A stretch of 50,088 bases of DNA, from NCBI GenBank assembly GCA_031414775.1, contig JANOQI010000045.1, positions 1 to 50,088 on the forward strand. Direction: 5' to 3'. A program made the position numbers and the translations under genes. Numbering within the stretch: the stretch's first letter is position 1; every line of letters begins with the position of its first letter. The notes beneath the pieces were generated by a model. That model made no database searches. It saw only the letters and a list, made by a program, of their open reading frames with translations, and was not told where the DNA came from. The DNA comes from Synechococcales cyanobacterium VAR_4_metabat_354 (GTDB taxonomy: Bacteria; Cyanobacteriota; Cyanobacteriia; Cyanobacteriales; Chamaesiphonaceae). This document shows, piece after piece, positions 20,201 to 35,747 of the stretch.

Positions 20201-21038
20201 GCTGCGCCGACCACAGCGAATCTGCGGGCTGTAAACAAAACAAAGGACTACTCATTACCGATTCAGCCGACAGTTGAGTTAAATCAAGTTCCAAAACCTG
20301 AAACTGGAGGACATCCTTTTCTGTGATGATTCCCACGGGTCGTAGTGGCTGCTCTCCATCCACAATTACGATCGAACTGATGCCATATTCAACCATTAAC
20401 TGAGAAACTTGTAGTATAGTTGTGTTTGCAGTAGTATGAATGACATCAGCCGTCATGCCTTCGCCCACGGATCTAAACTTCAAAAGATCGGTAGGTTGCA
20501 AAATTTGGCGGATGTGATCGGGCGTGATGATACCAAGCAGCATTCCCTGGGTATCAATAACCGGTAGATGGCGAATTTTATACTGTTGTAAAATGTTTAA
20601 AGCACTGATGATAGTCTGCTCCGCCGATAAGACCAAAGTGTGGAGCTGTTTAGTCATTACGTCTGCCACATTCATCCCCCGTAAATCAGCTTGGGTGGCA
20701 GTCAGTCTCACTAGATCGCGCTCGGTAAAAATGCCGACTAGCTGCTCGTTTTCTACAACCAACACCGAGCTATGCGATGTGGCCATTCGCCGCAGCGGAT
20801 GTAATTGCTCGGATGTTTCTGCTCCACAGGCTTCGCCAACATCGTGCGTGGTACCAAGCGGCCGGGGTAATACCTCCGGCGATGGGGCTGAGTTAGGTAA
20901 CAAACACTCACTATCCATACTCTGACTCATCATCAAGATTGCCTCAACGAGCGGCATATTAGGATGAACAACCAAAGGATTGCGATCGATGATTGACTCT
21001 AAATTCAGTGGTTTTGGGAAGAGATTGTTTGGGTACAT
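17259..21038 (-). CDS. CBS (two pairs)-multi-PAS/PAC hybrid histidine kinase with C-terminal REC
   Basis: VGIFTERD, GIITEKD and IRRLVV CBS motifs; four PAS/PAC units; AHDLNNVL, NLFVNARDAM, GTGLGL; REC with LDMMMP. Confidence 0.9.
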   Translation of the reverse strand: MYPNNLFPKPLNLESIIDRNPLVVHPNMPLVEAILMMSQSMDSECLLPNSAPSPEVLPRPLGTTHDVGEACGAETSEQLHPLRRMATSHSSVLVVENEQLVGIFTERDLVRLTATQADLRGMNVADVMTKQLHTLVLSAEQTIISALNILQQYKIRHLPVIDTQGMLLGIITPDHIRQILQPTDLLKFRSVGEGMTADVIHTTANTTILQVSQLMVEYGISSIVIVDGEQPLRPVGIITEKDVLQFQVLELDLTQLSAESVMSSPLFCLQPADSLWSAQQVMESRRIRRLVVTGAQGELQGIVTQSNLLRSFDPLEMLRVVDSLQMQLIDRSTELEQTNQELRAEVARRQQVEDELRQAAQGLEQRVVDRSTEITLLNEQQQSCNIALEISQQGISDFIENAIIGMNWVEFRADKLGQPAGIIVWANQAELKMLGYDRKEYIGQPLIDFYLDREAMRSMFQRLLNNELIQEHEAQMRRKDGSICHVLIDANALFKDGKFIHARFFTRDITDRKNAEAVLQETLTSLEFQKYALDRSAIVAITDQQGKIVYVNDKFCQISQYSAAELMGKTHFVINSGYHPPEFFRNLWTVITSGEVWSGEIKNRAKDGSYYWVATTIVPLLDDSGQPFQYLSIRFNITDRKQMEAALQASKARYRALVRSAPVGIYQTDVAGNCLFINQRCLQLLGITKAEALGQSWISSLHPDDREWVSTQWYRAVQAGQEFKSEHRFVTPQGRVNWVFVKAIGIYDKGVVTGYIGTLTDITERKQLEREREQFLAVASDLQLILGSNGYFHWVSPNCESTLGWTSDEMTSHQWTEFLHPDDIDRSVSDATSLFFGQGTIACENRYRHKDGSYRWLSWKAQSHAEEQVIYAVAMDITEKKQLEQQFLRAQRLESLGTLASGIAHDLNNVLTPIQGVAQLLPRTLPNLDERNQRLLTMLVESSKRGSSLVKQILTFARGLDGQRAVLQVRHILAEIINVARQTFPKAIEIVLDIAAEDLWMVNVDATQIHQVLMNLFVNARDAMPNGGRITATAGNIVIDETAAKMPSNTRAGSYVAIMVADTGMGIDSGSINKIFDPFFTTKKTGTGLGLSTVSGIIKAHGGFINVDSEIDRGTCFTIYLPAITNSEEDQPIDRPQLWEGNGQLILVVDDEDSVREITKSSLETYNYRVILARDGVEAIVLYAQHLDEISVVMLDMMMPNLDTPSVILALQRIKPTVKIVAMSGSVANEQIVEQFGLSAFLTKPFTMIEVLNTLVNLH

Positions 21039-21234
21039 ACTGGCCGGGTATGAAGTTGCGTTACACCTACCCTATATGCAGAAAGCCTGTACGGCAAGGT
21101 GATTGACTAGTTTTGTTCAAATTTTGTATTATATGCAACAAACAGAATGTATGCCACTCATTCAGTATAGCTTGTTTGTCTATATAGTTATAAGCTGACA
21201 AACTCATTAACTATAATGTGTTAAAAGAAAATCT

Positions 21235-21267
21235 CTTCACAAGTTCCTCAACTTGTTCATTTATTAT
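21235..21267 (+). promoter_or_regulatory. 17-bp direct-repeat box + 10 bp + -10 (TATTAT) upstream of the hsp20 pair
   Basis: cttcacaagttcctcaa-cttgttcatt-TATTAT. Confidence 0.6.
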
Positions 21268-21430
21268 CTAAATATGGTGAGACAAAATAAATGTATAGCA
21301 ATTCTGGATCAGTTGTGAATTTGAACCTGTTCTTTTTTGGGCAGAGGTTTCAGCTAGGAATAGTCGGTGGAATTATTTGGGATTGTTATAGCTATAAAAT
21401 TCAATTGATAATGCACAAGGATGGTATTTC

Positions 21431-21937
21431 ATGTCACTAATTAAATGGCAACCTTCAGAAGAATTGGATGCTTTACGACATCGGATTGACAGGCTTTTTG
21501 ATAGCATCAAACATGAAGAATTAGGGCTGGGGCTGTTTCCAAAAATGAGGGAAACCCGTTGGATACCAGCGATCGAACTGCAAGAAACGGAAACAGAGCT
21601 GGTGCTCAAAGCGCAAGTGCCAGGGATGGAGCTTGAAAAGTTGGATATTCAGGTTAGTGAAAATGCTGTTTTCTTAACTGGTGAATATCAGGATCAAAGA
21701 GAAATGACTGATCAGGGGTTTATGAAGTCAGAGTTTCATTATGGTCAGTTTAGGCGAGTGGTTCCTTTACCATTAGCTATTCAGCGAGACCATGTGCAGG
21801 CAGCGATGGTTGATGGTCTCTTGACTATCACAATGCCCAAAGCACAATCTGTGATTCCAAATGTAGTGAAAGTATCCTTAGCTACATCAGACCAAGCGCC
21901 AAAAACTCCGGCAACTCCGAAACTATCTACTAAATAG
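21431..21937 (+). CDS. Small heat shock protein Hsp20/alpha-crystallin
   Basis: WIPAIELQET, SEFHYGQFRRVVPLP, DGLLTITMPK. Confidence 0.95.
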   Translation: MSLIKWQPSEELDALRHRIDRLFDSIKHEELGLGLFPKMRETRWIPAIELQETETELVLKAQVPGMELEKLDIQVSENAVFLTGEYQDQREMTDQGFMKSEFHYGQFRRVVPLPLAIQRDHVQAAMVDGLLTITMPKAQSVIPNVVKVSLATSDQAPKTPATPKLSTK

Positions 21938-21974
21938 TAAACATATTTACACAATAAACCAAGAGGATAATATT

Positions 21975-22457
21975 ATGTCACTAATTAAATGGCAGCCTCT
22001 AGAAGAATTCAATGTTTTACGCCAGCAGATCAACCGAATGTTTGATGACATAGTGCATGAAGAACCGGGAACAAAGATGTTTCCGAAGATGCAAGAAACT
22101 CCGTGGGTACCTGCGATCGAGCTACAAGAAACAGAAACAAACCTGTTGCTTAAGGCACAGATACCAGGGTTAGAACCTGAAAGATTGGATATTCAGGTCA
22201 GCGAAAATGCTGTTTTCCTAACTGGTGAATATCAAGATCAAAGAGAAATGACTGATCAGGGCATCATGCGATCGGAGTTTCACTATGGCCGGTTTACCCG
22301 TTTGGTGCCCTTGCCCTCAGCAATTCATAAAGAGCAAGTAACCGCAGAAATGGCTGATGGTTTATTAACTTTAACAATGCCTAAAGCGATGGCTAGTTTA
22401 CCCAACATGGTAAAGGTGCCATTAACCAAGCCAGATCAAGCTCCAGTCAATAAATAG
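21975..22457 (+). CDS. Small heat shock protein Hsp20/alpha-crystallin (tandem paralog)
   Basis: WVPAIELQET, SEFHYGRFTRLVPLP, DGLLTLTMPK. Confidence 0.95.
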   Translation: MSLIKWQPLEEFNVLRQQINRMFDDIVHEEPGTKMFPKMQETPWVPAIELQETETNLLLKAQIPGLEPERLDIQVSENAVFLTGEYQDQREMTDQGIMRSEFHYGRFTRLVPLPSAIHKEQVTAEMADGLLTLTMPKAMASLPNMVKVPLTKPDQAPVNK

Positions 22458-22471
22458 TCTGTATTGTAGTG

Positions 22472-22508
22472 ACAATATGCCACTGATATATATTCAGTGG
22501 CATATTGT
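22472..22508. terminator. 15-bp perfect inverted repeat after the hsp20 pair
   Basis: acaatatgccactga-tatatat-tcagtggcatattgt followed by ttt. Confidence 0.75.
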
Positions 22509-22713
22509 TTAGGCCAGAAATTAAATCATACTAGATACAGAACGCCAGCTTATGGTCTTTTATGATGGTGTGACAGATGCCTTACGATTCCGGGCATCAC
22601 TCAAGTCAACATCACTTGGGATTCTCGCTCTACCAGTTCTGATCACAAATGTTGGAGTAACGAGCGAATGGTTACTCGACCCACCAGAAAACTTAAATCA
22701 TCAAATTCTTAAT

Positions 22714-23343
22714 TTAACTGGAGAGTGCCACCAGTAAAATATGCCACCAGTAATTGACCAGCTGCCAAATTATGCCTGCAATGCTGGCAAAGAAAACAGT
22801 CGTTGCTGTAGTCATGCCATAGCCAATCAGAATAAACAAGCCATCGGACTCTAACAGACCGATCGACAAAAATAAAATTGTATAAGCAGGCAAAAGATTT
22901 GTAAAAGGAATTGGTAATGGTAGTGACATCAAGAGGGCATTCCAAGCTAGACAAACACCAATGATCCGGCCACTCCACCAACTATTACTAAATTTAGGAA
23001 ATCGATGTCTGGACATCTGTTCTAAAGGTTGGAGAAAACGATTGATATTCTTGAGTAATTTTTGGGAAGCACCGGGTGACAGTTCTTGACGAGCGATTCG
23101 CTGAGGCAAGTAGGGTTTTTCATAGCCCAAAGCTAATTGGCAGCCAATCAGAACTATACCACTACCTACTAACGCTGAAAATCCGGCCAATGGAATGGGA
23201 CTAGGAATCAACATGGGGATCGTTAGCATCCCTGCAATCATGCCAAATCCATTGCTGCCCACTTGTTTGAGTAAGATATGTAGTGGCAAAGGTTTGTTGG
23301 TATATTTAACCAATAAGTCAGAAAGTGTTTGTGATAGTTTCAT
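22714..23343 (-). CDS. exoD: Exopolysaccharide synthesis protein ExoD family
   Basis: GFG...PMLIP...QLALG...PYLP...LPLPIPFTNLLPA...GLLESDG. Confidence 0.88.
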   Translation of the reverse strand: MKLSQTLSDLLVKYTNKPLPLHILLKQVGSNGFGMIAGMLTIPMLIPSPIPLAGFSALVGSGIVLIGCQLALGYEKPYLPQRIARQELSPGASQKLLKNINRFLQPLEQMSRHRFPKFSNSWWSGRIIGVCLAWNALLMSLPLPIPFTNLLPAYTILFLSIGLLESDGLFILIGYGMTTATTVFFASIAGIIWQLVNYWWHILLVALSS

Positions 23344-23546
23344 CTCAAACAGTATATTCGATTTCCCAGAAGAAGACGCGATGCAAACGAATTACTAATG
23401 GCAAAAGTCTCTGATCTCAACCACTACCATTAAGGTCTATACTAGTCATAGAGATTATCTGGTTGATCAATGCAATGCAGCAAAGTCAGCTCTTCGATTC
23501 TCAATCAATCCGTCTTCAAATAAATTACTGATGAGAGTGAATCTAA

Positions 23547-24041
23547 ATGTTGAAAAAAATCTTGATCGCAATTAGCGATTCATCAGAGGCCGAAAAAATC
23601 TTAGCATCGGGATTAACCATAGCTGATAAACTTGGTGCTCAAATTCTACTTTTGCATGTTCTTAATCCGCTTGTGCAGCATGATTTTGGTATAGTTGGCA
23701 GTTCATTGGTGGGAGGTATTCTCCCTATTGTCAATGATCAAGCGATCGAGCAATATGTAAAAGAGTGGCAAAAATATGAAAAACATGGGATGGAACGTCT
23801 CCAGTCTTATGCTCAACAGGCTAGTGATCGTCAAATCAAAGCTGAGATTCTGCAAAATTTTGGAGACTCTGCACCAATGATTTGTGCAGCTGCCAAAACT
23901 TGGTCAGCAGATTTGATCGTGATGGGTCGTAACCAGCAATCGGCCTTGAGCGAAATCTTTCTAGGTAGCACCAGTAACTATGTTTTACATCATGCGTCCT
24001 GCTCGGTGATGGTTGTTCAGTCGGATGCTAATTCAGATTAA
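23547..24041 (+). CDS. Universal stress protein
   Basis: KKILIAI, LLHV, ADLIVMG, FLGSTSNYVLHHASCSVMVV. Confidence 0.95.
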   Translation: MLKKILIAISDSSEAEKILASGLTIADKLGAQILLLHVLNPLVQHDFGIVGSSLVGGILPIVNDQAIEQYVKEWQKYEKHGMERLQSYAQQASDRQIKAEILQNFGDSAPMICAAAKTWSADLIVMGRNQQSALSEIFLGSTSNYVLHHASCSVMVVQSDANSD

Positions 24042-24285
24042 GGTCTCTCACTATACTTGATATGGGTGTAATGGGAAACACTAATTGTTTCATCTGCGAT
24101 TACCGATAGATGGCGCGATCGATCGTACACCGGAACTTCACTGAACAACATTACTGCCCACGAAAGCCCAAAAACATCACCGATCTAAACTCAGAGAGAT
24201 CGATGATGCAGGGTGATTTATGGGTAAGCTGAATGTACGGTAAATATTCTTCAAGGTATTTATCATACATTATTACTATGGAAAT

Positions 24286-24750
24286 ATGAGCAGTCGAAGC
24301 AGTTGTTATGTCACCATTCTCACTCTATGCGGTCTCACCTTTGGAATTGCTGTGCCTGAAGCCTTTGCGAAACCGGCTGACAACTATCTTGGAGTTGGTA
24401 CCAGAGGCGGATTGTATGATGACACTACCGCAATCATTAATGCCAAATTCAAAATCACTGATTTTGGAGGAGTCAGTCTGTCAGGCAGACCTGCCATCTT
24501 TTTGGGAAACTATACAGAGTTACGGTTTTCCCTTACGGGCGAGAGAGAGATTGCTCCGGGTTGGACACCCTTTTTTGGGGTAGGAGTAGCTACTAATACG
24601 GATAGGAGTGGGGAAACAAACCCCATGTTGGCAAGTGGAATGGACTTTCAAATTAGCGAAAGATTTGTACTTCAGATCGGTGGGAACTTTATTTTTCAAT
24701 CTAACGATACAGACAAGGAATTAACCGCTACTGTAAACTACTTGTTCTAG
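24286..24750 (+). CDS. Secreted outer-membrane beta-barrel-like protein
   Basis: Signal peptide ending in AFA, NYLGVG, alternating beta strands, C-terminal aromatic YLF. Confidence 0.6.
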   Translation: MSSRSSCYVTILTLCGLTFGIAVPEAFAKPADNYLGVGTRGGLYDDTTAIINAKFKITDFGGVSLSGRPAIFLGNYTELRFSLTGEREIAPGWTPFFGVGVATNTDRSGETNPMLASGMDFQISERFVLQIGGNFIFQSNDTDKELTATVNYLF

Positions 24751-24832
24751 CGGCATTGTTGCATGAATTAGGGGTTGCGGTGGTGCAACATGATAAGTTT
24801 GAAGTACTACCGAAAAATCATCAGAGTTATGA

Positions 24833-24991
24833 AATGCAACGTCTGCCCGCGCTTATTACCAACGGGGTGATGTCCGCGAAAAAGCTGGTGATAGAAGTGG
24901 TGCCAGAGCCGATTTCCAAAAAGCGGTAGATATTTACCAGCAGCAGGGGCGAATCTCCGGTTACCAAGAAGCTTTAGAGCGAGTGCGCTGA
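24833..24991 (+). pseudogene. 3' remnant of a tetratricopeptide-repeat gene
   Basis: Not in the ORF track. AYYQRGDVREKAGDRSGARADFQKAVDIYQQQGRISGYQEALERVR* matches the C-terminal TPR/capping helix of cyanobacterial TPR proteins; in-frame stop upstream and no start. Confidence 0.7.
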
Positions 24992-25007
24992 CTGTAGTTA
25001 ATTAGAA

Positions 25008-25057
25008 AAGCTCTCAAAGAAAGCGGTAGACATTCTAACCGCTTTCTTTGGGAGCTT
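25008..25057. terminator. 20-bp inverted repeat (one mismatch) between converging genes
   Basis: aagctctcaaagaaagcggt-agacattcta-accgctttctttgggagctt. Confidence 0.75.
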
Positions 25058-25077
25058 AATAATTTATATCTGGAAAT

Positions 25078-25410
25078 CTAGTGACGACGGCGGTAACCAT
25101 CGCGATCAAATTCATCATCACCATTGCGGTCGTAACGATCGTAGTAGCCATCTCGTCGAGCATCCCGATACCGATAGTCGATGTTACGGCCATGATGACG
25201 TCTCTTTACTCGGTAGTATTCACCAGGATGAACTACCACAGGGGCTGGGTAATATACCCGTGGTGCTGGATAGTAGACTCTGGGTGCATGATGAACCACT
25301 GGTTCATCAGATGAGAAAGTTATCGAAACTCCGGCTTGGGCTGCATTGGCAGCCCCGAAGGTAGAAATACTAGCAGCCGCAATAGCTAATGTCATCAGTG
25401 CTTTTTTCAT
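25078..25410 (-). CDS. Secreted low-complexity Pro/Tyr/Arg/His-rich protein
   Basis: Signal peptide ending in AQA, two APRVYYP units, Arg/Asp/Tyr-rich tail. Confidence 0.7.
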   Translation of the reverse strand: MKKALMTLAIAAASISTFGAANAAQAGVSITFSSDEPVVHHAPRVYYPAPRVYYPAPVVVHPGEYYRVKRRHHGRNIDYRYRDARRDGYYDRYDRNGDDEFDRDGYRRRH

Positions 25411-25818
25411 GATTAATCACCTAAAATAGTGAGGAAGTAAGGTTAACTATCTAGATTCCCAGCAATAAATCTCGTCTATTTTGGGGAATCTGGAGGGGCT
25501 GGTCAGGCAGCATAGCCAAGGCTTTACTGCTAAGAGGTTTGGGGAATTCGGGGGTTTTGTGGTTTTCTTAGCATGAATTCAATTTCAGCTAAAACCTTCA
25601 CTCTGTCCTTGTCTTGCTGAGACAAAAATATAAATATTTTAGCTATTTTAGGCAACTACAGAAGTATACATTCATCGACTAGAACAATTACTGATTGTTC
25701 CTGTTGCTCGCTCCCATTCTGAGCCTAGTAATATCAACCAAATTTCATGATTCAATCGCAACTGATCACAGCTTTTTGTCCACCATTTTTACCCATCCAG
25801 ATATCTTTATCTCTCTAA

Positions 25819-26313
25819 TCAACTAGCTTTAGGCAGAGATTCCCATTCAAATCCATGGATCTTGGGCAAGGAAGCTGGTCGAGAGGTCGCCCGTAGCAAG
25901 CGCGGGATCTGACCGCTATCATAAACCCGGAATTCGATTTCCAGCTTGGCTGTTACAGCGCGCAGCGCCTGATTTAAGACGACGGAGCCATTCGGATCGG
26001 AAACAGAGCGATGGAAGGTGCCGGGTGGGATTTGTAAAATATCGCCGCCAGCTTCTAATCGCACAATATGAAATGGCTTTGGCCAAGAGAAATTAACTAG
26101 ATAAAAGGTGCGGCCACCAGATAAAGCGAGTAAATTGTCCTCTTGGTGGGAGTGCATGTAGAACTGCCAGTGTCCATCATGACTGTCGTTGGGACTGATT
26201 GCTGGACCTTGATGGTAGACCAAATCTCGCGCATTAGAGCTAGCAATCGTAATATCGAAAAATTTTACGCCCGGAGTATCGCGAAATTTTTGATAAGGAA
26301 TAAATTTAAACAT
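25819..26313 (-). CDS. Cupin-fold putative metalloprotein
   Basis: FYMHSHQEDNL and LQIPPGTFHRS cupin motifs 1 and 2. Confidence 0.75.
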   Translation of the reverse strand: MFKFIPYQKFRDTPGVKFFDITIASSNARDLVYHQGPAISPNDSHDGHWQFYMHSHQEDNLLALSGGRTFYLVNFSWPKPFHIVRLEAGGDILQIPPGTFHRSVSDPNGSVVLNQALRAVTAKLEIEFRVYDSGQIPRLLRATSRPASLPKIHGFEWESLPKAS

Positions 26314-26444
26314 GGTCTGTTCTCACCACACACAAGAGGAAGTCGGTAGTTAAATCTTTGGCATATTACCCTTATTTTAATTTATCTAGAGATTTTGATG
26401 GAGTACAAAATATACAGAAAATATATTTGTCTTCTATGATTTTT

Positions 26445-26477
26445 ATCCTAACAGCGAGATGTGATGAACTTGTGAAG
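26445..26477 (-). promoter_or_regulatory. 17-bp direct-repeat box + 10 bp + -10 (TAGGAT) upstream of the cupin gene
   Basis: Minus strand reads cttcacaagttcatcac-atctcgctgt-TAGGAT. Confidence 0.65.
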
Positions 26478-26592
26478 TTAAAAGCTGCAGAATTTGTAAA
26501 ATTAAACCTTTAGAATGCTTACTATCTAGTGCCATTCAGTTAATTTCAGTTAAAATTGGATATTACAGTCTGACTTATGGAGTTGAGTTCTT

Positions 26593-26829
26593 ATGTTTGA
26601 GGGAATGAGTGCTAAGACTGCTGCCCTGTTTGGAGTAATTGCCGGTATGGCTCTATCAATCGCTACTGGGTTGCGACCAAATGTTCAATTCGACATGAAG
26701 TTTAATTTCCAACCTAATCAGCACCAAGACGAATCTGTAGATCCTGTAAGTTTGAATCCTGATCCCGCCCAATCTGAAAGTCAGCAGTCGCCGGGCAAGG
26801 AGCCTTGTCCTGCCTGTGGGATGGGCTAG
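26593..26829 (+). CDS. RiPP precursor peptide, chryseobasin (ChrA)-like, C-terminal CPACGMG
   Basis: 78 aa: hydrophobic N-terminal segment, polar Pro/Gln/Ser linker, terminal EPCPACGMG; directly abuts the DUF692 gene. Confidence 0.85.
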   Translation: MFEGMSAKTAALFGVIAGMALSIATGLRPNVQFDMKFNFQPNQHQDESVDPVSLNPDPAQSESQQSPGKEPCPACGMG

Positions 26830-27747
26830 TTGGGTAGTGGGCGAAACCGCGCCTGGGGAGTATCACTATTTAAAAAGACCACCCAATCTTTACCATGGGT
26901 CGGTCTTTCTGTGATGCCTGAGCCAGAATTTTTTCAGGCTACTCGCCAGCTGTTTGAAGCTGGTCAGGTAGATGTGGTGGAATGGAGTTTCGATGTGGGC
27001 TGGGGGCGGAGCTTGCCGGGATGGCTTGATGAACTGCTCAGTTTTTATAGCGATCGAGATCGACTATTAGGGCATGGGGTAAGTTATTCATTACTATCAG
27101 CACAGTGGCAATCACCACAAGCTAAATGGTTAGATCAGTATCAGGCTGAACTGCAAAAATATCGCTATCATCACATTTCCGAGCATTTTGGTTGGATGGG
27201 AGCGGGGAAGTTTTATCATAGTGCGCCGTTATCTTTGCCACTCGCACCGCAGACTTTGGCGATGGGAATCGATCAATTGCAAAAATTAGTACAGATGTCA
27301 ACGGTACCCGTCGGTTTAGAAAATTTAGCCTTTGCCTGGAACCAGCAGGATGCTTGCGAGCAAGGATCTTTTATCAGGCAAATGTTAGCGCCAGTCCAAG
27401 GATTTCTACTACTAGACTTGCATAATCTCTATTGCCAAATGGCTAACTTTAATCAATCAGCGGCTACGATGTTGGCGCTTTATCCGTTAGAGTTAGTGCG
27501 CGAAATACATATTGCGGGTGGTTCCTGGAGTAAATCTGGGCAGCGACACATTCGACGCGATACCCATGACGCAGCGGTGCCAGAGGAAGTTTTTCAGCTC
27601 TTAGCGAGAGTGCTGCCCCGTTGTCATAATCTGAAAGCCGTAATCTTGGAGCGGTTGGGTCATACTTTAGAAACCGAGGCCGCGCGAACGGGATTGCAAC
27701 AGGATTTCGCTCGACTACGCCAAGTTGTGGAACAGAGGTCGCGGTGA
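26830..27747 (+). CDS. DUF692 multinuclear non-heme iron oxidative enzyme (MNIO), ChrH-like
   Basis: GHGVSYS, ISEHFG, GLENLA, LLLDLHNLYC, EIHIAGG, DTHD and ILER metal-ligand motifs. Start codon uncertain (TTG immediately after the precursor stop). Confidence 0.92.
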   Translation: MGSGRNRAWGVSLFKKTTQSLPWVGLSVMPEPEFFQATRQLFEAGQVDVVEWSFDVGWGRSLPGWLDELLSFYSDRDRLLGHGVSYSLLSAQWQSPQAKWLDQYQAELQKYRYHHISEHFGWMGAGKFYHSAPLSLPLAPQTLAMGIDQLQKLVQMSTVPVGLENLAFAWNQQDACEQGSFIRQMLAPVQGFLLLDLHNLYCQMANFNQSAATMLALYPLELVREIHIAGGSWSKSGQRHIRRDTHDAAVPEEVFQLLARVLPRCHNLKAVILERLGHTLETEAARTGLQQDFARLRQVVEQRSR

Positions 27748-27935
27748 CTGAACCAGAAATTGCTAATTTCCAGGCGAATTTATTAGGAGCTTTGTACGAG
27801 TTGGCTGAAGCTCCAGATATTCGATCGCGTTTAGCTGATTGCCCAGGAGCAGAATACTTGCAGACAGCGGATGATGACATGATTGAAGTGGCCGCCGAGT
27901 TGGTAAAGACTTGGGGGAAGATCGATCGTAACTAA
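27744..27935 (+). CDS. Small acidic helical partner of the MNIO
   Basis: 63 aa; GTGA start/stop overlap with DUF692 implies translational coupling. Confidence 0.7.
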   Translation: MTEPEIANFQANLLGALYELAEAPDIRSRLADCPGAEYLQTADDDMIEVAAELVKTWGKIDRN

Positions 27936-28008
27936 CATGCGTTGCTCCATAGTTCCCTTGCTAATCGTAAGTTTCGAGCCTACTTTTCTTCAGGACACTA
28001 CCAAATCA

Positions 28009-28773
28009 TCAGTTCATGGATAGGTTTATCAAGTCTGCTGACATCTCGAAGTTGGCTGTGACATTTTGGATGTCATCCAGTTCTTCTAAGGTTTCTAACA
28101 GTTTCAATAGTTGTTTGCTTTGGTCTGGATCAGTGATTTCGATCGTATTGCCTGGAATCCAGCGCCATTCTGACTCCATCACCGCAAAGCCTTGGGCTTG
28201 GAGCGTCTGACTGAGTTGTTCCAGATTAGTAGTTTCGGTAAAGACCTCGGCTCCTGGCTGCTCTTCATCATCAATAAGTTCATAGACATCTGCCCCACCG
28301 TCTAAAGCAGCGACCAGCAGTAAGTCTTCGTCTATCTGGCCATTAATAATACACACGCCCTTTTGAGTAAACATCCAGCTGACACAGCCTGTTTCACCTA
28401 AATTGCCACCCCGTTTACTGAGAGCCGCACGGAGGTCGGCCGCAGTGCGATTCCGGTTATCAGTCAGGGCTTCCATGATAAGGGCGACACCGCCGGGACC
28501 GTAGCCTTCGTAGCGCAGTTCTTCTAATCGATCGGCTTCCCCTGCCAAATTACCGGCACCTTTAGCGATCGCTCTTTCAATATTATCATTGGGGATGCTG
28601 GCGGCCTTGGCTTTATCGATCGCTGTTCGTAGTTGGAAATTACCCGCCGGATCGGCACCACTCCGGGCTGCTACAATTATTGCTCGCGATAATTGGGCGA
28701 AAGTTTTACCGCGTACTGCATCTGTGCGGGCTTTTTGCCGTTTGATGGTCGCCCACTTACTGTGTCCTGACAT
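28009..28773 (-). CDS. yebC: YebC/PmpR family protein
   Basis: MSGHSKWATIKRQK, YEGYGPGG, TDNRNRT, LEELDDIQNV. Confidence 0.95.
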   Translation of the reverse strand: MSGHSKWATIKRQKARTDAVRGKTFAQLSRAIIVAARSGADPAGNFQLRTAIDKAKAASIPNDNIERAIAKGAGNLAGEADRLEELRYEGYGPGGVALIMEALTDNRNRTAADLRAALSKRGGNLGETGCVSWMFTQKGVCIINGQIDEDLLLVAALDGGADVYELIDDEEQPGAEVFTETTNLEQLSQTLQAQGFAVMESEWRWIPGNTIEITDPDQSKQLLKLLETLEELDDIQNVTANFEMSADLINLSMN

Positions 28774-29098
28774 GTTTAGTGAATTTTATTGTGTTAGCAC
28801 GAAAAAAAGTAAGACAGACATGCTTCCCAGAAAAAATAGAAAAGGAAAGAAAATAGAGATTAAAAATCTTTTGTTGATTTCCAACTTGAACCCCAAGAAC
28901 AGAATATATTAACCTTATCGTAAAAGTTGATCGCTACAAAGGTCAGAGCAAACGCGTCGATTAAAACACTAGTCGAGACGTACTGAGCGAAAATATCTGT
29001 AGAGATAATCTCAGCTTTCTTCCATAAACCATGATGGATTAGCATAACCAAAAGTACTCAGCCCAAACCGAACCCCAATATGATTTGTGTCGATCGTC

Positions 29099-30451
29099 TC
29101 ATCTATCGATCGATCCAAACTTTGCCTTTAATTGCTTCTGCATCATAAATGGGCGTCGCACTGGTGCAATTTCAGCAGTTGTCGGTGTCACCGTCCAATC
29201 GTACTTTTGCAACAACGTCGAGAGAATAATCTTCATCTCCATCTGGGCGAGTTCCATGCCGACACAACTATGTATGCCACCGCCAAAGCCAATTAATGAA
29301 TAAGGCTGTTTCTTATCTTCTTCACGGGGCGGCGCAAATCGGTCAGGATCGAAGGCATCTGGATCTTGGTAAATTTCTGGCAACCGATGAGTCAACATCG
29401 GAAAAATGCACACGTACCAACCAGCAGGAATTAGATAACCACCATATTTAATATCTGCCATCGCCATGCGACTAATCACGAACGCTGGTGGATACATACG
29501 TTCGCCTTCTTTGATTGCATTAGCCATATTGGGAAGTTGACGCAGATGGCCGATCGAAATCGGTTCGCATCCCATTACTTGCTGACATTCATCGCGCAAT
29601 TTTTGTCGCCATTCTGGACGATTACCCAATTCAAACAACAACCAACTCATCAAACTCGATGTCGTATCATGTCCAGCAAACAGGAATCCAATCGCCTGAT
29701 TAATAACTTGTGTTTCGGTAAACTTATTGCCATCTTCATCCACCGTATTCAGTAGTAAACTGAGTACATCTGTAGATTGTTCTAGATCGCCACTTGCAGC
29801 TCTTTCTTTGATAACTTGGCGGATATAATCGACAATTTTGCGGCGGGCAGTTTGCCCCCTACCATGAAGAGTTAGGGGATTATCCCATTTTATAACACCA
29901 TTTAGACTGTCTACGAGAGTCGTAAACCACTCACTCACTTGCTGAATCTCTTCAGTCTTTTCGCTACCTAGAAAAATTTTAACCACGACAGCCAGCGTCA
30001 ATTTGTGCAATTCAGCACTGAGATTAATCGTACCGCGCTCACCCCAATCAGCCATCGCCTCAGTGCAAACTAACTTAATCGTATCAAAATAAGAGGCGAT
30101 CGCTTGTCGATGAAATACGGGTAAAATCAACTTCCGACTAATACGATGTTGTTGCCCATCTTGCATCAATACCATGTCAGGACTGAGGATCGGCGACAAG
30201 AATTTATTGCCCAACCGCGATGAAAATTTATCAGCTTCATCTTTGAACACCAGCCGATTCGCCTCCGGCCCAACTAGACAAGCGATGTTATTAAACAGCC
30301 CTGGCATGGATACTCTAAAGATATTGCCATGCTTTTGATTTTGCTCCCAATAAAATAGCTCCTGCTTGGTGAGTGCGCTAATTGTATTCCTAATCAGTGG
30401 TAATCCAGTGTTACCAGGCATCATATGAGCAGATTTTAGTTTATTTGTCAT
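29099..30451 (-). CDS. Cytochrome P450 (CYP120-like)
   Basis: FAGHDTT I-helix, EGER (ExxR), FDPDRF and FGGGIHSCVG heme motif. Confidence 0.95.
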   Translation of the reverse strand: MTNKLKSAHMMPGNTGLPLIRNTISALTKQELFYWEQNQKHGNIFRVSMPGLFNNIACLVGPEANRLVFKDEADKFSSRLGNKFLSPILSPDMVLMQDGQQHRISRKLILPVFHRQAIASYFDTIKLVCTEAMADWGERGTINLSAELHKLTLAVVVKIFLGSEKTEEIQQVSEWFTTLVDSLNGVIKWDNPLTLHGRGQTARRKIVDYIRQVIKERAASGDLEQSTDVLSLLLNTVDEDGNKFTETQVINQAIGFLFAGHDTTSSLMSWLLFELGNRPEWRQKLRDECQQVMGCEPISIGHLRQLPNMANAIKEGERMYPPAFVISRMAMADIKYGGYLIPAGWYVCIFPMLTHRLPEIYQDPDAFDPDRFAPPREEDKKQPYSLIGFGGGIHSCVGMELAQMEMKIILSTLLQKYDWTVTPTTAEIAPVRRPFMMQKQLKAKFGSIDR

Positions 30452-30500
30452 ATGGCAGCATCGAACCTCTAAGCCTAATTTATTCCAGTTAGCAGAAATG

Positions 30501-31595
30501 TTACATTTTATTGAAAAAGTCGATCGCGATTGCTGATGTTTTTGATAATAAACTTAATGGGTCTGTATCACCAAATGAACCGATCTTTTTACTAAGTCTC
30601 GGATTAATCGTCAGCGGTAAATCCAGGAAGCTAAAATGACTGGCGGATTCTTGGGTAAGTACTTGTAAGTTTACATTACTTGCAAGTTGCTCGATGCGAG
30701 TTCGATCTTTTGCCATCATTGAATTATGTACTGATTGGGACTTCCCACCATCGATCGTATATTTCTCTCGATTAGATAACATTAATAAAAACTCTTTTTC
30801 TGAATAGCTGAAGTCGATCTCATCGATGTAAAAATATCCATCGAAATTGACAGCCTTAGAAATTCGGTGATCTCGTCCGCAAGCTACGAAACTAGCTGAA
30901 CCACCAATGGAATGTCCAGCCGCAAATATTTTTTCGATGTTAACTTTACGATCTAAAAAAGAATTATTGGTAGAGTTCATACTTATGACTCGATCGAGCA
31001 CCATCGAGATCTGATTTGCCTGAGTTACTGCAACCTTACTGACTAATAAATCCGGTTTAGCTAAACCATCGGATATTTCCTTGTCCATGCCGATTTGCGA
31101 TCCATTTACGAGCATCGTGCTGACACTTAAACCAGGATGATCGATACCTACAACAATAAAACCGTGACTAGCAAATTCTAAAGCGTAGAAACTATTCAGA
31201 AAATTAGTGCCTAAACCAGATGAAAATAGGACAACGGAAAAGTTAGGTTGAGACTGACTTAGTGCTGTATCGATCGAGGCTGGAATCCGAATATGTCCGA
31301 GTAGTAAATGACTAAATATCAGCTTGAATAGTAGATTTACAACCAGATTTTTAGAAAAAGTTTTGCCAATTTTGCCTAGATAAGAACTGTCAGTAACTAG
31401 ATTTCGATTTGTTGGATACCAGACCTTGGCAATTATTCCCGACTGACTGGGTGTATCCCAAATTAAGTCAGATTTGCCTACTTGCCATTGTCCTGATGGT
31501 TGGGGAAATGGGTGAGTGGGAATTAGCCAGTAAGGTAAAGCGATAATTCCTATAATTACGATAATAATCAAAAAAATTAGCATAAATAAATTCAC
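30501..31595 (-). CDS. Membrane-anchored alpha/beta hydrolase (PAF-acetylhydrolase-like)
   Basis: N-terminal TM, PSGQWQVG, VWYP, ASHGFIVVGIDHP, GHSIGG nucleophile elbow, NFDG, HFSF. Confidence 0.85.
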   Translation of the reverse strand: MNLFMLIFLIIIVIIGIIALPYWLIPTHPFPQPSGQWQVGKSDLIWDTPSQSGIIAKVWYPTNRNLVTDSSYLGKIGKTFSKNLVVNLLFKLIFSHLLLGHIRIPASIDTALSQSQPNFSVVLFSSGLGTNFLNSFYALEFASHGFIVVGIDHPGLSVSTMLVNGSQIGMDKEISDGLAKPDLLVSKVAVTQANQISMVLDRVISMNSTNNSFLDRKVNIEKIFAAGHSIGGSASFVACGRDHRISKAVNFDGYFYIDEIDFSYSEKEFLLMLSNREKYTIDGGKSQSVHNSMMAKDRTRIEQLASNVNLQVLTQESASHFSFLDLPLTINPRLSKKIGSFGDTDPLSLLSKTSAIAIDFFNKM

Positions 31596-31673
31596 AATTA
31601 TTAAATTAAACTTGGCTCTTCCTTCAAAGATAAAATATTTGAGGATAGTTTTTATCGTATTTTATGGCGATCT

Positions 31674-33035
31674 CTAAATCGGTACAAATTTTGCTTTTAA
31701 CTTTTTCTGCATAGTCACTGGATTCCGTACTGGTGAAATTTCTGCTGTTGTTGGCATCACCGTCCAGTTGTATTTTTGGAGCAGAGTTGTGAGGATGATT
31801 TTCATCTCCATATTGGCAAATTCGACACCTAAACAACTATGTACCCCACCGCCAAAACCAATTAGAGAATATGAGTATTTCTTATCTTCTTCTCGCGGTG
31901 CCGCAAAGCGATCGGGATCAAATAAATCCGGTTCTCGATATATTTCCGGCATTCGATGAGTGAGTTGCGGGAAGATCATTACATACCAACCAGCCGGAAT
32001 ATTGTAGCCAGCATATTCAATATCTTCAGTAGTCACACGCGCCAGCCCAGCGACTGGTGGATAGAGCCGTTCACCTTCTTTGAGAACATTTGACATCTGG
32101 GGTAGTTGGCGTAGATGTTTGATATTTAATGGTTGATTCCCCGTTACTTGCTGGAGTTCATCGCGCAATTTTTGTCGCCAGTCTGGATGATTACCCAATT
32201 CAAACAAAATCCAATTCATCAAGCTGGCAGTCGTTTCATGTCCAGCAAATAAAAAGCCAATGATTTGATTGATAATCTGAGTCTCAGTGAAAAATGGCTG
32301 ACCATCTTCATCGAGAATATTCATCAACAATCCTAGCAGATCGGTCGATCTATCCAAATCGCGACGTTTTATTCTTTCTTGAATCAGTCGGCGGGAATAA
32401 TTAACTATTTCACGACGAGCAGCTTGTCCTTTTCCATATTTAGTAAATGAGACATCCCATTTAATTAGACTACCAAGGCTTTCAATTAACGTATTAAACC
32501 ACTCACAGACCCGATCGATATCTTCAGCTTTCTCGCTACCTAAAAAAGTTCTGACGACAACGGAGAGGGTAAGTTTGCGAATCTCAGTATTCAGGTCAAA
32601 TGTATCTCTTGCCCCCCAATCGGCTACTGTTTCGCTCACAACTAGCTGAATCGTATCGAAATAAGAGGCGATCGCTTGATGATGAAATACTGGCAAAATC
32701 ATCTTGCGACTAGCTCGATGCTCTTCACCATCTTGCAACAGCACTAGATCTGTACTGACGATCGGTTCTAATGCAGCATTCCCCAGCCGCGATGACAACT
32801 TATCAGCCCCATCTTTGAGGACAAAACGGTTAGCATCTGGCCCAACTAAACAAGCAATTTTGCCAAAGAATGGTGGTGATACCCTGAAGATTTTGCCATG
32901 TTTTTGATACTGCTCGAAGAAAAATAGTTCTTGGTTGGAAAATAGTTCAACGATCTGACTGACTCGGGAGCTACTAGGCATCGAACTGACAGGCTTTAAT
33001 CGTTCGCGGAGCGTCTGCTGTGGAGAATTGGTCAT
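31674..33035 (-). CDS. Cytochrome P450 (CYP120-like), paralog of 29099-30451
   Basis: FAGHETT, EGER, FDPDRF, FGGGVHSCLG. Confidence 0.95.
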   Translation of the reverse strand: MTNSPQQTLRERLKPVSSMPSSSRVSQIVELFSNQELFFFEQYQKHGKIFRVSPPFFGKIACLVGPDANRFVLKDGADKLSSRLGNAALEPIVSTDLVLLQDGEEHRASRKMILPVFHHQAIASYFDTIQLVVSETVADWGARDTFDLNTEIRKLTLSVVVRTFLGSEKAEDIDRVCEWFNTLIESLGSLIKWDVSFTKYGKGQAARREIVNYSRRLIQERIKRRDLDRSTDLLGLLMNILDEDGQPFFTETQIINQIIGFLFAGHETTASLMNWILFELGNHPDWRQKLRDELQQVTGNQPLNIKHLRQLPQMSNVLKEGERLYPPVAGLARVTTEDIEYAGYNIPAGWYVMIFPQLTHRMPEIYREPDLFDPDRFAAPREEDKKYSYSLIGFGGGVHSCLGVEFANMEMKIILTTLLQKYNWTVMPTTAEISPVRNPVTMQKKLKAKFVPI

Positions 33036-33068
33036 AACAGCAATTTATTCCAAATTGTGGCATAATTA

Positions 33069-33098
33069 AGTTTATGAGTAAGTCCTCATCTTTGTCAA
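33069..33098 (-). promoter_or_regulatory. Sigma70-type promoter of the P450 operon with a palindromic operator in the spacer
   Basis: Minus strand TTGACA (33098-33093)-N18-TAAACT (33074-33069); palindrome ATGAG-taagtc-CTCAT at 33074-33089. Confidence 0.6.
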
Positions 33099-34009
33099 GC
33101 AATAAAACTCTTCGCCGTCAACCTCAGCAAAAACGCGGACAACAGCGGGTAGAGAAGATTGTAGTGGCCGCTGCGGAAGTATTTGCTGAGGCGGGATTTG
33201 CAGCGGCTACCATTCAACAAATAGCCGATCGAGCCAACACCGCTGTCGGTTCGATCTACCAATTTTTCCCAGATAAATTAGCAATTTTTCACGCTTTAGT
33301 TACTAAGCATCTACAACAGACAGATATCCTTGAAGCTGAATTTTTCAAAGGCGATCTAAATCGTCCGATCTTCCAGTGTATTAGCGAGTATATAGATGCT
33401 TACACCAGCTACTTCGAGCAGCCAATTCCCCGCTGTATCGCCTTGCAAGGCTACTTGCAGCCGATCGAAGGACTATCGGATTTAATGGCAGATTTACCCA
33501 ATCGAGTATCAACCTTAATCGAAAACCACGCTAATCTCTATCGCCAACGCAACCCCAATCTCAGCGTAGCCAAAAGCAAATTGCTGGCAGAAGTGGCTCA
33601 ACATATGTGTACCAGCTTATTTTTTCGGGCGATCCAAAGTGATGAATCACATCGCCAAGAATTATATGCAGAGGTTAAAAATCTTCTGTATGTCTATCTC
33701 AATCCCCACATCGGCGACCATCTACTAGTTTCGCACAATCAAAAGATGATTTGTCCAGATTGCCAGAGCGATCGAGTAGCTAAGAACGGTCGCCAGAATG
33801 GTAAGCAACGTTATATTTGCAGAGGATGTGGTCGGCAATTTGTCGATCGCTATATTGAAAGAGGATATCCTCTAGAAATTAGGCAAAAGTGTCTCGCTCT
33901 CCATCAGCAGGGAGTTAGCTTTCGTGAAATTGAGCGCAGCACTGGTATCAATCACAACACAGTGATTAATTGGGTGAAGAATCTGGAGTTGCGGGCTGAG
34001 GGGAAATAA
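33074..34009 (+). CDS. TetR/AcrR regulator fused to a C-terminal IS1 InsA-like zinc-ribbon/HTH domain
   Basis: TetR HTH (GFAAATIQQIA...GSIYQFFPDK); C-terminal CPDC...KNG...GKQRYICRGCGRQF...SFREIER...HNTVINWVK. The start may be TTG 33092. Confidence 0.88.
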   Translation: MSKSSSLSSNKTLRRQPQQKRGQQRVEKIVVAAAEVFAEAGFAAATIQQIADRANTAVGSIYQFFPDKLAIFHALVTKHLQQTDILEAEFFKGDLNRPIFQCISEYIDAYTSYFEQPIPRCIALQGYLQPIEGLSDLMADLPNRVSTLIENHANLYRQRNPNLSVAKSKLLAEVAQHMCTSLFFRAIQSDESHRQELYAEVKNLLYVYLNPHIGDHLLVSHNQKMICPDCQSDRVAKNGRQNGKQRYICRGCGRQFVDRYIERGYPLEIRQKCLALHQQGVSFREIERSTGINHNTVINWVKNLELRAEGK

Positions 34010-34100
34010 AGATTTACACTAAATCCCCACATAAAAAATTGCCCCTCAACATAAGCCATATTTTAGATAGCGTAATTGCAAACGTTTCCATTCCTGTCTA

Positions 34101-34424
34101 TTAACGCCAGAGCTTGTTTTCCAGCTCGCGCACTTGCCGCTCCAAGCGATCGATCCGACCCCGCAGCTCATCCATCTCCGACTGGCGCGGCACCCCAATA
34201 TCTTGCATGGTGTTGCGCAGCCAGCGCTGCATCTGTTCATCCACCGAGCTAGGATCTAACTTTACTTGCTTCATAATGTCATCGACCATAGTCTTGGCTT
34301 GGTCGGGATTGATCTTGCCATCTTTGACCAATTCTTCACTCATTTCACGCACTTTGTCAGCGACGAGGGAGGTGGTGCCAATGCCCATCATAACAATTTG
34401 TTGCAGCCAGTTATTGTTGTCCAT
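34101..34424 (-). CDS. Phasin-like/granule-associated family protein
   Basis: MMGIGTTSLVADK...ELVKDGKI...PRQSEMDELRGRIDRLE. Confidence 0.8.
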   Translation of the reverse strand: MDNNNWLQQIVMMGIGTTSLVADKVREMSEELVKDGKINPDQAKTMVDDIMKQVKLDPSSVDEQMQRWLRNTMQDIGVPRQSEMDELRGRIDRLERQVRELENKLWR

Positions 34425-34575
34425 AGGAAAAACTTGGATTTCTTCACTCAGTATAAGTATTTACATGCCGTTGCGGAGGAGTTGGATATCCGAACAGCTA
34501 CATTAATAGATGGCTAGAAAAGATGAGTATCGAACAGGTTACAATGTTTTGCCTGTGCAGCGAATTGGAAATCTT

Positions 34576-34977
34576 ATGTCACCTTTGTCACCTTGGGTTA
34601 GTTTAGTCATTGTTTTGGCGCTCATTCTTTTTTTGATCCTGACTATTAACGTTGGCGGAGCTAGAGTTAAATATGGAGTAAAAGCACCAGTCGTAACGGG
34701 AAGCCCTGAATTCGAGCGAGTCTTACGAGTTCAACAAAACACCCTGGAGCAGTTGATTCTATTCTTGCCAGCTCTGTGTATTTTCTCTATTTTTGTCTCA
34801 CCGATCGCTGCCGCCATTTTGGGTACCATCTGGATTGGAGGTCGTATTCTATATGCCTGGGGCTACTATAGAGCTGCTGAAAAGCGTGGTCCAGGGTTTG
34901 CGATCGGCATCCTGTCCACCATAGTTTTATTAATGGGTTCCCTGGTGGGTATTGGTCTGAATTTATGGCGTGGTTGA
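34576..34977 (+). CDS. MAPEG family protein
   Basis: ARVKYGVKAP, FERVLRVQQNTLEQ, GRILYAWGY. ATG 34576 preferred over 34510. Confidence 0.9.
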   Translation: MSPLSPWVSLVIVLALILFLILTINVGGARVKYGVKAPVVTGSPEFERVLRVQQNTLEQLILFLPALCIFSIFVSPIAAAILGTIWIGGRILYAWGYYRAAEKRGPGFAIGILSTIVLLMGSLVGIGLNLWRG

Positions 34978-35110
34978 AGACTACTCAGACAGACTTTTAA
35001 TATTTAAAGTGAAGTTATTGCTCACAATCGATAATTACTGGTGCTTCTACCGTTGCACTTTCGGCTAAAAATACTACAATGATGATTGTAAAGTTATATG
35101 AAATTAGCTA

Positions 35111-35728
35111 ATGGAGTTCCTGTCAGTTGAGTTTATCAAGGAAATCGCTGAAAAGTATGGCTACATAGCCGTCTTCCTTGGTATCTTGCTCGAGAATCTA
35201 GGGATTCCCCTGCCAGGGGAAACAATCACCATCGTTGGTGGTTTTCTGGCAGGTAGTGGTGAATTGAATTACTGGTTAGTATTAGCCAGTGCGGCTTCTG
35301 GTGCTTTTATTGGTGGAATTTGCGGTTACTCAATCGGTAAGTATGGTGGCTGGCCACTAATGCTGAAATTAGGTGGATTTTTTCGAGTGTCAGAATCCAA
35401 GCTAGTTGAAATTAAAGAAAAATTTAGTGAAAATGCGGTCAAGGCCATTTTCGTTGGGCGTTTTCTAGCTCTATTCCGGATTTTTGTTAGCCCGATGGCT
35501 GGGGTTGCGGAAATGCCTTTTGGTAAATTTCTGGCAGTGAATCTGGCTAGCGCTTGTGCCTGGGCTACGGTTATGACCGGTTTGACTTTTGTGGTGGGCA
35601 AGTTTGTATCATTAGAGCAACTGGTGGCTTGGGTGGGTCAGTTTGCTTTACTAGCCTTGGTGATTGTCATTGCTTGGATTGTGGTACCGATTTGGTTGGA
35701 GAGTCGCCAAGCCAAGCTGGAAGAATAG
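35111..35728 (+). CDS. dedA: DedA family membrane protein
   Basis: LENLGIPLPGE, GYSIGKYGG, FVGRF...R, AG...MPFGKF. Confidence 0.9.
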   Translation: MEFLSVEFIKEIAEKYGYIAVFLGILLENLGIPLPGETITIVGGFLAGSGELNYWLVLASAASGAFIGGICGYSIGKYGGWPLMLKLGGFFRVSESKLVEIKEKFSENAVKAIFVGRFLALFRIFVSPMAGVAEMPFGKFLAVNLASACAWATVMTGLTFVVGKFVSLEQLVAWVGQFALLALVIVIAWIVVPIWLESRQAKLEE

Positions 35729-35747
35729 AAATATTTTGAGCTAGCTC

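Follow-up and report, generated by a model that had tools for sequence, protein, structure and literature searches.

The stretch of DNA analysed here, referred to as the window, comprises 50,088 nucleotides of contig JANOQI010000045.1 (assembly GCA_031414775.1, positions 1 to 50,088 of the forward strand) from Synechococcales cyanobacterium VAR_4_metabat_354, and at positions 26593-27935 it carries a compact cassette built around an enzyme of the MNIO (DUF692) family. Three co-directional open reading frames (ORFs), whose coordinates were confirmed in an ORF reading of the window, lie on the + strand in the order precursor peptide, MNIO core enzyme (H) and a protein of 63 amino acids (aa), here called Hc. 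A sequence-only reading of the same DNA had pointed to a 78-aa ORF ending in PCPACGMG, a DUF692 enzyme and a 63-aa ORF coupled to it by a GTGA overlap, and all three are real. We consider it highly likely that these genes form a self-contained operon of the split ChrH/DybH type, in which the H and Hc pair is predicted to introduce a macrocycle and a hydantoin into the CPACGMG end of the peptide. The earlier reading had treated the locus as an unexplained variant lacking a partner. That view did not hold: as judged from alignments, the 63-aa ORF is the C-terminal helical domain of a ChrH/DybH-type enzyme, encoded separately, and a split of this kind has been described (PNAS 2026, PMC13056109). 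With that layout in print in 2026, the locus joins a known family as a new but ordinary member.

The core enzyme and its separately encoded C-terminal domain

The core enzyme (26830-27747, + strand) is a MelH-like protein of 305 aa when read from a TTG codon. It matches PF05114 (MbnB_TglH_ChrH) with 114.1 bits against a gathering cut-off of 25 (E 9e-33), and this is the one PF05114 match in a genome of 3.56 Mb (64 contigs, 99.96% complete). By far the best of the NCBIfam MNIO models is NF050165 MNIO_ChrH (339.7 bits, E 2e-101), the scores for BufB, HvfB, ApyH and MbnB being 100.3, 82.5, 50.5 and 18.8 bits. This is in keeping with the earlier proposal of a ChrH-type MNIO locus, with a CPACGMG precursor for a peptide made ribosomally and modified after translation (a RiPP), outside the Bacteroidota. 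A TIM-barrel fold is suggested for the core by homology to TglH (PDB 8hci, E 2.2e-12), the sole solved relative found by sequence. Residues H82, H119, D196, H227, D244 and H246 are invariant in an alignment of 25 sequences, as are E164, H198 and E274, and the first six share, to within one residue, the spacing of DybH H65/H102 (Fe1), D179/H210 (Fe2) and D228/H230 (Fe3); this is a mapping by spacing only. According to the report on DybH, mutation of these iron ligands abolished or diverted catalysis (PMC13733907).

The gene caller of the source assembly places the start of the enzyme at ATG 26914, giving a protein of 277 aa (P0001). Homologues with ordinary starts have a conserved P-W-V-G-L-S strand ahead of that methionine, the ChrH profile aligns from residue 22 of the 305-aa form, and TTG 26830 is the only in-frame ATG, GTG or TTG upstream of the strand. 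The TAG-TTG junction is also kept in the closest relative, the same-genus genome G037, where a 3-nt in-frame indel lies downstream of the junction. On the basis of the strand, the sole upstream start and the conservation of the junction, TTG 26830 was adopted, and it is probably the true start rather than ATG 26914. For the same reasons the earlier observation that the enzyme begins on the very next base after the precursor is probably right, TTG 26830 directly following the precursor TAG stop. Precursor and enzyme share one reading frame, with a single TAG and then the TTG between them (26827-26832), and the junction TAGTTGG is identical in G037. Termination followed by reinitiation is the simple reading of this arrangement, and occasional read-through to give a precursor-enzyme fusion could conceivably occur as well. 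At the other end of the enzyme gene, the GTG start of Hc overlaps the stop as GTGA, and the two junctions together suggest translational coupling of all three genes.

The alignment to NF050165 spans positions 2-285 of a profile of 363, which means that the C-terminal part of ChrH (286-363, linker and helical domain) is absent from the MNIO ORF. Hc (27744-27935, + strand; 63 aa from GTG) appears to be the missing domain. It aligns with residues 324-382 of the fused homologue P0019 (383 aa), that is the last 59, at 46% identity (E 2e-13), and with the end of a second fused homologue, P0031 (E 9e-8); a third comparison aligned 13 residues only (E 0.009). In alignment A1 the fused forms run past the stop of the window MNIO, through a linker of about 40 aa and into an Hc-like domain. 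A profile-profile comparison in hhalign between 22 distinct split Hc sequences, window included, and the fused tails gave a probability of 96.1% (E 3.3e-9) over 70 columns. AlphaFold2, run on a 21-sequence alignment, confidently predicts Hc to be a four-helix domain (pLDDT 91.5, pTM 0.76). A Foldseek search of this model against the PDB returned nothing at E <= 0.001, the best being a TetR-like regulator fragment (E 1.1), and offered no lead to function. These features agree with the statement in PMC13056109 that all ChrH-family enzymes have a C-terminal helical bundle of about 7.8 kDa, which in Cyanobacteriota is encoded as a separate polypeptide, MelHc, that is pulled down by MelH.

Comparison was extended to 92 related loci (three from the genome search, nine more from genome contigs and 80 from metagenome contigs; L001-L003 were omitted as duplicates), and these divide into 58 with a fused tail of at least 70 aa, 30 that are split-like and four cut at a contig end. 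Of the 30 split-like loci, 22 have a downstream ORF that a hidden Markov model (HMM) of the fused tails recognises, and the Hc of L006 (in G037) was added by tblastn with the window Hc (78% identity), making 23 of 30. The Hc start overlaps the MNIO stop by 1-19 nt in 22 of these 23 loci. The possibility that the split is a frameshift artefact was considered and rejected: the linker of about 40 aa found in fused forms is missing, Hc begins at a codon of its own that overlaps the stop, and 23 loci from several phyla show the same layout. Split H/Hc pairs are not confined to cyanobacteria, being found also in loci from metagenome-assembled genomes (MAGs) of Planctomycetota and Verrucomicrobiota (L008, L009, L010, L012, L015, L019, L024 and L080), and the precursors of these loci are often lipobox-like (LSGC, MTGC, FLGC). 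Planctomycetota are named in the sequence similarity network text of PMC13056109.

It is extremely unlikely that the 63-aa ORF is a new partner, unrelated to the enzyme, that replaces ChrI in substrate recognition or membrane coupling and so defines a novel architecture. Such a role would suit its tight coupling to the enzyme gene and its lack of any family assignment and of a structural neighbour in the PDB (best Foldseek E 1.1), but homology to the enzyme's own C-terminal domain in fused homologues argues strongly for another origin, and the H/Hc split is already published (PMC13056109). Moreover, Hc has no hydrophobic segment, whereas ChrI is described as an integral membrane protein of the DUF1772 family, in a chr cluster that also includes ChrE and ChrP (ACS Cent Sci 2023, PMC10214503). 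No DUF1772 protein, M42 peptidase, epimerase, protease or transporter was found near the cassette when window ORFs of at least 110 aa were compared with Pfam, and the absence of an adjacent ChrI, protease or transporter noted earlier is thus confirmed for that scan. The missing ChrI is not an anomaly, however, since PMC13056109 describes the separate MelHc of Cyanobacteriota and reports ChrI to be dispensable, ChrA being modified by ChrH without it. The genome has a single ORF of the ChrI family, DUF1772/Anthrone_oxy (175 aa; contig C14:15462-15782, - strand, locus L110), with a 414-aa sigma-factor-like gene on one side and a 297-aa NmrA-like gene on the other, and nothing ties this ORF to the cassette.

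The precursor peptide and its predicted product

The precursor (26593-26829, + strand; 78 aa) consists of a hydrophobic N-terminal segment, a polar linker rich in Pro, Gln and Ser, and the C-terminus KEPCPACGMG followed by the stop. The codons of the CPACGMG core (residues 72-78; 26806-26826, + strand) are the predicted site of modification, on the precedent of ChrA, DybA and MelA1 (PMC13056109, PMC13733907). In a six-frame motif scan this was the only substantial ORF in the genome to end in C-P-x-C-G-x-G-stop, and because it stands directly upstream of the sole PF05114 match the pairing is more than chance. The association extends to the relatives: a C-x-x-C-G-x-G-stop ORF lies just upstream of the MNIO in 78 of the 92 loci, CPACGMG itself terminating 51 of the 78, and seven of the 14 loci without such an ORF have less than 350 nt of upstream sequence. 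The precursor matches no Pfam family, and its weak C-terminal match to NF050125 ChrA_rel_RiPP (E 0.0068, 17.1 bits) is under the cut-off of 40. Its start at 26593 is backed by the G037 orthologue (61% identical), in which MFEG is kept and the second Met is changed to Ile. This orthologue, the closest (L006/L109, G037 contig C30), ends in CTACGMG, with Thr for the consensus Pro, and other loci end in CLACGMG, CMGCGMG, CGPCGMG or CAECGRG, so that position 2 of the motif is not invariant.

The hydrophobic N-terminus reported earlier corresponds to residues 9-27, a run of 19 aa with a mean Kyte-Doolittle value of 1.84. Small residues occupy positions -3 and -1 in SIA|TG (after residue 24) and in ATG|LR (after residue 26), and the rest of the peptide (52 residues) has a net charge of -4 and an abundance of Pro, Gln and Ser. 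Apart from C72 and C75 of the motif the precursor has no cysteine, and this excludes the lipobox route taken by the lipoprotein-type DAG-RiPPs. A hydrophobic N-terminus and the lack of a lipobox Cys are also seen at six other loci of the cyanobacterial clade (L004, L005, L016, L006, L007 and L018), which represent five distinct precursors, those of L005 and L016 being identical.

In the split-operon interpretation the three genes would likely be translated in coupled fashion, and H and Hc, both of which lack a hydrophobic N-terminus, would form a cytoplasmic heterodimer of which both members would be needed, by analogy with MelH and MelHc; the report on that pair describes a -4 Da modification of MelA1, a 34-kDa TPR protein, only with the two proteins together (PMC13056109). 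On the precedent of DybH, ChrH and MelH, oxidation of C75 with O2 at the tri-iron site would give a thioaldehyde. Rearrangement of the backbone would then produce the hydantoin, in which G76 and M77 would take part, and ring closure by C72 would complete the macrocycle, for a net change of -4 Da. As with DybA and MelA1, the thiol left at the end would most likely be free and not methylated. Export of the modified peptide through Sec would likely follow by means of its hydrophobic N-terminus, and cleavage by signal peptidase I near SIA|TG or ATG|LR could set free about 52-54 aa of it in the periplasm or farther out.

A number of points weigh against this interpretation or narrow it. A look for RNA among public runs listed none for the cassette. 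The ChrH score of 339.7 is below the NCBI equivalog cut-off of 600, and NF050165 consequently does not certify that the enzyme is isofunctional with ChrH. Hc matches no Pfam or NCBIfam family, and the HMM of the 58 fused tails, which are mostly of the Bacteroidota type, misses the Hc of the window and of G037; its homology to the fused tails comes from the closer fused homologues and the profile-profile comparison and not from a direct HMM match. MelA1 is a dimeric TPR protein (PMC13056109), whereas the window encodes a 78-aa precursor whose polar linker looks disordered. A TPR precursor of 30-40 kDa belongs to the characterised Mel example and probably not to the clade as a whole. The state of methylation is not predictable, given that ChrA and, in part, ArlA were methylated in Escherichia coli through a determinant that the report calls not understood (PMC13056109). 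Finally, the 19-residue hydrophobic segment is also compatible with an uncleaved membrane anchor.

This last point leads to a less likely but tenable outcome, in which the chemistry is the same and the signal anchor is retained, giving a membrane-tethered peptide with its modified C-terminus on the periplasmic or thylakoid-lumen side. The length of residues 9-27 would suffice for a transmembrane helix, only one Lys, along with one Glu, is present in the n-region, and the homologue from the Hydrococcus MAG (L007) has a still longer hydrophobic run; tethering had also been raised as an option in the sequence-only reading. Cleavage is favoured by the small residues that follow the hydrophobic core (SIA|T, ATG|L) and by the ordinary-looking signal peptidase I ends of related cyanobacterial precursors, GVSA|SE in L004 and ASKA|QS in L005. 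It is further favoured by the SignalP assignments given in PMC13056109, where ChrA and MelA1 carry signal peptidase I signals and DybA-type peptides carry lipoboxes.

The earlier reading cited the thiomethyl product of the Chryseobacterium pathway, but a thiomethyl group is not the default outcome for these enzymes. An S-methylated, chryseobasin-type peptide (+10 Da) in place of the unmethylated -4 Da congener seems improbable, even though the CPACGMG core is identical to that of ChrA and the methylation of ChrA and ArlA noted above would be a precedent. Four of the six homologues tested in PMC13056109 (DybA, ChsA, HymA and MelA1) gave the unmethylated -4 Da product, and they include the substrate of MelH/MelHc, the sole split system characterised in that report. 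In addition, the window enzyme groups in a quick tree with split forms, apart from 56 fused Bacteroidota-type rows, and no methyltransferase is adjacent to the cassette in the Pfam scan of window ORFs.

Just after the hydrophobic segment, the precursors of the window (26668-26712, residues 26-40) and of G037 share the stretch RPN(V/M)QFDMK(F/V)NFQP, and comparable stretches are PDMKINLDL in the Hydrococcus MAG and VQFDKQK in the genome G353. This may be a clade-specific motif. We hold it to be quite doubtful, if imaginable, that the short peptides of this cyanobacterial sub-clade constitute a distinct product class: Sec-targeted peptides of about 50 aa whose free-thiol macrocycle-hydantoin head would buffer or chaperone a thiophilic metal such as copper in the periplasm or thylakoid lumen, with RPN[VM]QFDMK[FV]NFQP as a second recognition or sorting element of a type not seen in ChrA, DybA or MelA1. 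Metal binding by the product is speculation.

Precursors elsewhere in the set of related loci show other designs. Those of the marine-type loci L027, L029, L033 and L035 have an EF-hand-like DxNKDGKLSxxEF ahead of a CPGCGLG end, and the enzyme genes of L027 and L029 have a broken frame, with a stop-to-stop ORF of just 116 aa. The precursors of L020, L023 and L028 have an Arg-rich start, W(F/W)QLSLRTL(F/L) and a hydrophobic helix, and lack a classical signal peptide.

Distribution, boundaries and surroundings of the cassette

The cassette is rare in the genomes sampled. The enzyme was found in two of 38 other genomes of the family (two of 11 in the genus and none of 27 in the sister genus) and in one of 400 other sampled genomes of the phylum (E <= 1e-40). 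When window positions 20000-36000 were compared with G037, only 26516-27949 (+ strand) aligned, to contig C30 at 77.7% over 1452 columns in blastn, with unmatched flanks on either side. The G037 enzyme is 83% identical to that of the window. The YebC gene of G037 is on a different contig from its cassette, and G038, whose YebC is 93% identical, yields no MNIO match. The flanking genes in G037, in G353 (seen through the overlapping metagenome locus L016) and in the Hydrococcus MAG are unrelated to one another and to those of the window. As the cassette is the only block shared with G037 in this comparison, and the flanks differ, the unit consists of the three genes plus a short leader, and no further gene is conserved with it. 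This three-gene unit appears, from these comparisons, to have moved or been acquired.

It is very unlikely that the cassette is a recently acquired remnant, decaying or silent and without current function. Its patchy occurrence within the family and the phylum and its changed context in one close relative (G037) would be in line with such a history, but the three frames are intact and all of the catalytic residues listed above are invariant. The length differences between the window and G037 amount to two in-frame indels, of 6 nt in the precursor and 3 nt at the N-terminus of the MNIO, and conservation extends to the leader and to the junctions at starts and stops.

A quick maximum-likelihood tree of 85 rows, from which 3'-cut loci, enzyme ORFs of less than 270 aa, the interrupted L027 and L029 and duplicates were omitted, places the window within a seven-row cyanobacterial clade made up entirely of split forms (SH-aLRT 97). 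Around this clade are split forms found in MAGs of Planctomycetota and Verrucomicrobiota, and the 56 fused Bacteroidota-type rows stand apart from it. The fused forms P0019, P0031 and P0033, which are 57-58% identical to the window enzyme, are absent from the tree, and for this reason no inference is drawn on the number of fission or fusion events.

Upstream of the precursor ORF a 280-bp AT-rich gap separates it from a divergent cupin-like gene. The 77-nt leader (26516-26592) matches G037 no less well than the coding region does and may be a promoter or 5' untranslated element. A consensus scan marks a promoter-like GTGCCA-16-TAAAAT at 26529-26556 (+ strand) in this leader, which is kept in G037, as a putative promoter. 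The scan returned three sites against 3.1 expected from shuffled sequence, which is the level of chance, and so carries no weight by itself; a terminator-like site was not found in the same scan of the region. After the Hc ORF comes a convergent YebC/TACO1 gene.

Two neighbours were considered as members of the cluster and rejected, since neither is adjacent to the cassette in G037 or in other cyanobacterial loci: the divergent cupin-like ORF (25819-26313) and a secreted 110-aa ORF (25078-25410, - strand). The latter has a signal-peptide-like N-terminus, YYPAPRV repeats and a tail rich in His, Arg, Asp and Tyr, and it matches no Pfam or NCBIfam family. The metal-related neighbours seen at other loci are isolated cases that are not conserved: L007 has CusB/AcrB-type efflux genes and G037 an ABC-3 permease. 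Farther upstream (21431-24038) are two tandem HSP20 genes, an ExoD gene and a universal stress protein gene, for which a link to the cassette was not seen. Downstream, a PAF-acetylhydrolase-like hydrolase (30504-31595) lies between two cytochrome P450 genes of the - strand (29099-30451 and 31677-33035), and these are followed by a divergent TetR regulator (33074-34006) and a MAPEG protein (34510-34974); the P450, hydrolase and TetR genes (29099-34006) may form a small cluster for the oxidation of lipids or xenobiotics. The window also encodes Ycf4, sucrose synthase and FtsH, which are in keeping with a cyanobacterial origin, as are the names given to homologues of the enzyme.

Comparison with characterised systems

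With its three coupled genes in about 1.4 kb, the locus is a further intact and very compact case of the split H/Hc form of the ChrH/DybH enzymes. It opens no new question, in that the architecture, the dispensability of ChrI and the type of reaction have already been published, and it gives no strong contextual clue to the physiological role of the products. Its value lies in the pairing of the split form with a short peptide, as opposed to the 34-kDa protein of the only characterised split system, and this makes it a convenient minimal system for the role of the Hc domain and the effect of substrate size.

The closest published counterpart is the mel cluster MelA1/MelH/MelHc of Candidatus Melainabacteria isolate SJ512 (PMC13056109). 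Both loci encode Hc as a small protein directly downstream of the core enzyme, and as the mel cluster is described there, it shares with the window a substrate ending in CPACGMG, a secretion-type N-terminus that is not of the lipoprotein kind, and the lack of ChrI. Judged by its sequence, the window locus differs from the characterised Mel system in its combination of a short precursor, no lipobox Cys and a hydrophobic N-terminus. Among the related loci, L008-L010, L012 and L015 (MAGs of Gemmataceae, Planctomycetia, Blastopirellula and Luteolibacter) have the same precursor-H-Hc order with an overlapping Hc start, and their enzymes are 50-55% identical to that of the window, but many of their precursors have lipobox-like cysteines or N-termini of other kinds, with CPACGRG or CPPCGQG at the C-terminus.

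The fused systems resemble the window in their substrates and differ in the form of the enzyme. DybA/DybH of Dyadobacter crusticola, a DAG-RiPP system (PMC13056109, PMC13733907), has like the window a short precursor directly upstream of the enzyme, a CPACGMG end and, as far as the cluster is described, no partner gene, and the iron ligands of DybH share their spacing with the invariant residues found here. DybH, however, is a single fused polypeptide where the window enzyme is split, and DybA carries a lipobox Cys and ends up as a triacylated lipoprotein, whereas the window precursor has the two motif cysteines only. In the chryseobasin cluster ChrA/ChrH/ChrI/ChrE/ChrP of Chryseobacterium (PMC10214503), ChrA shares with the window precursor the CPACGMG end and a signal-type N-terminus of the non-lipoprotein kind. 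ChrH is again fused, and the product of ChrA is S-methylated. The DUF1772 membrane protein, M42 peptidase and epimerase of the chr cluster have no counterpart adjacent to the cassette in the window.

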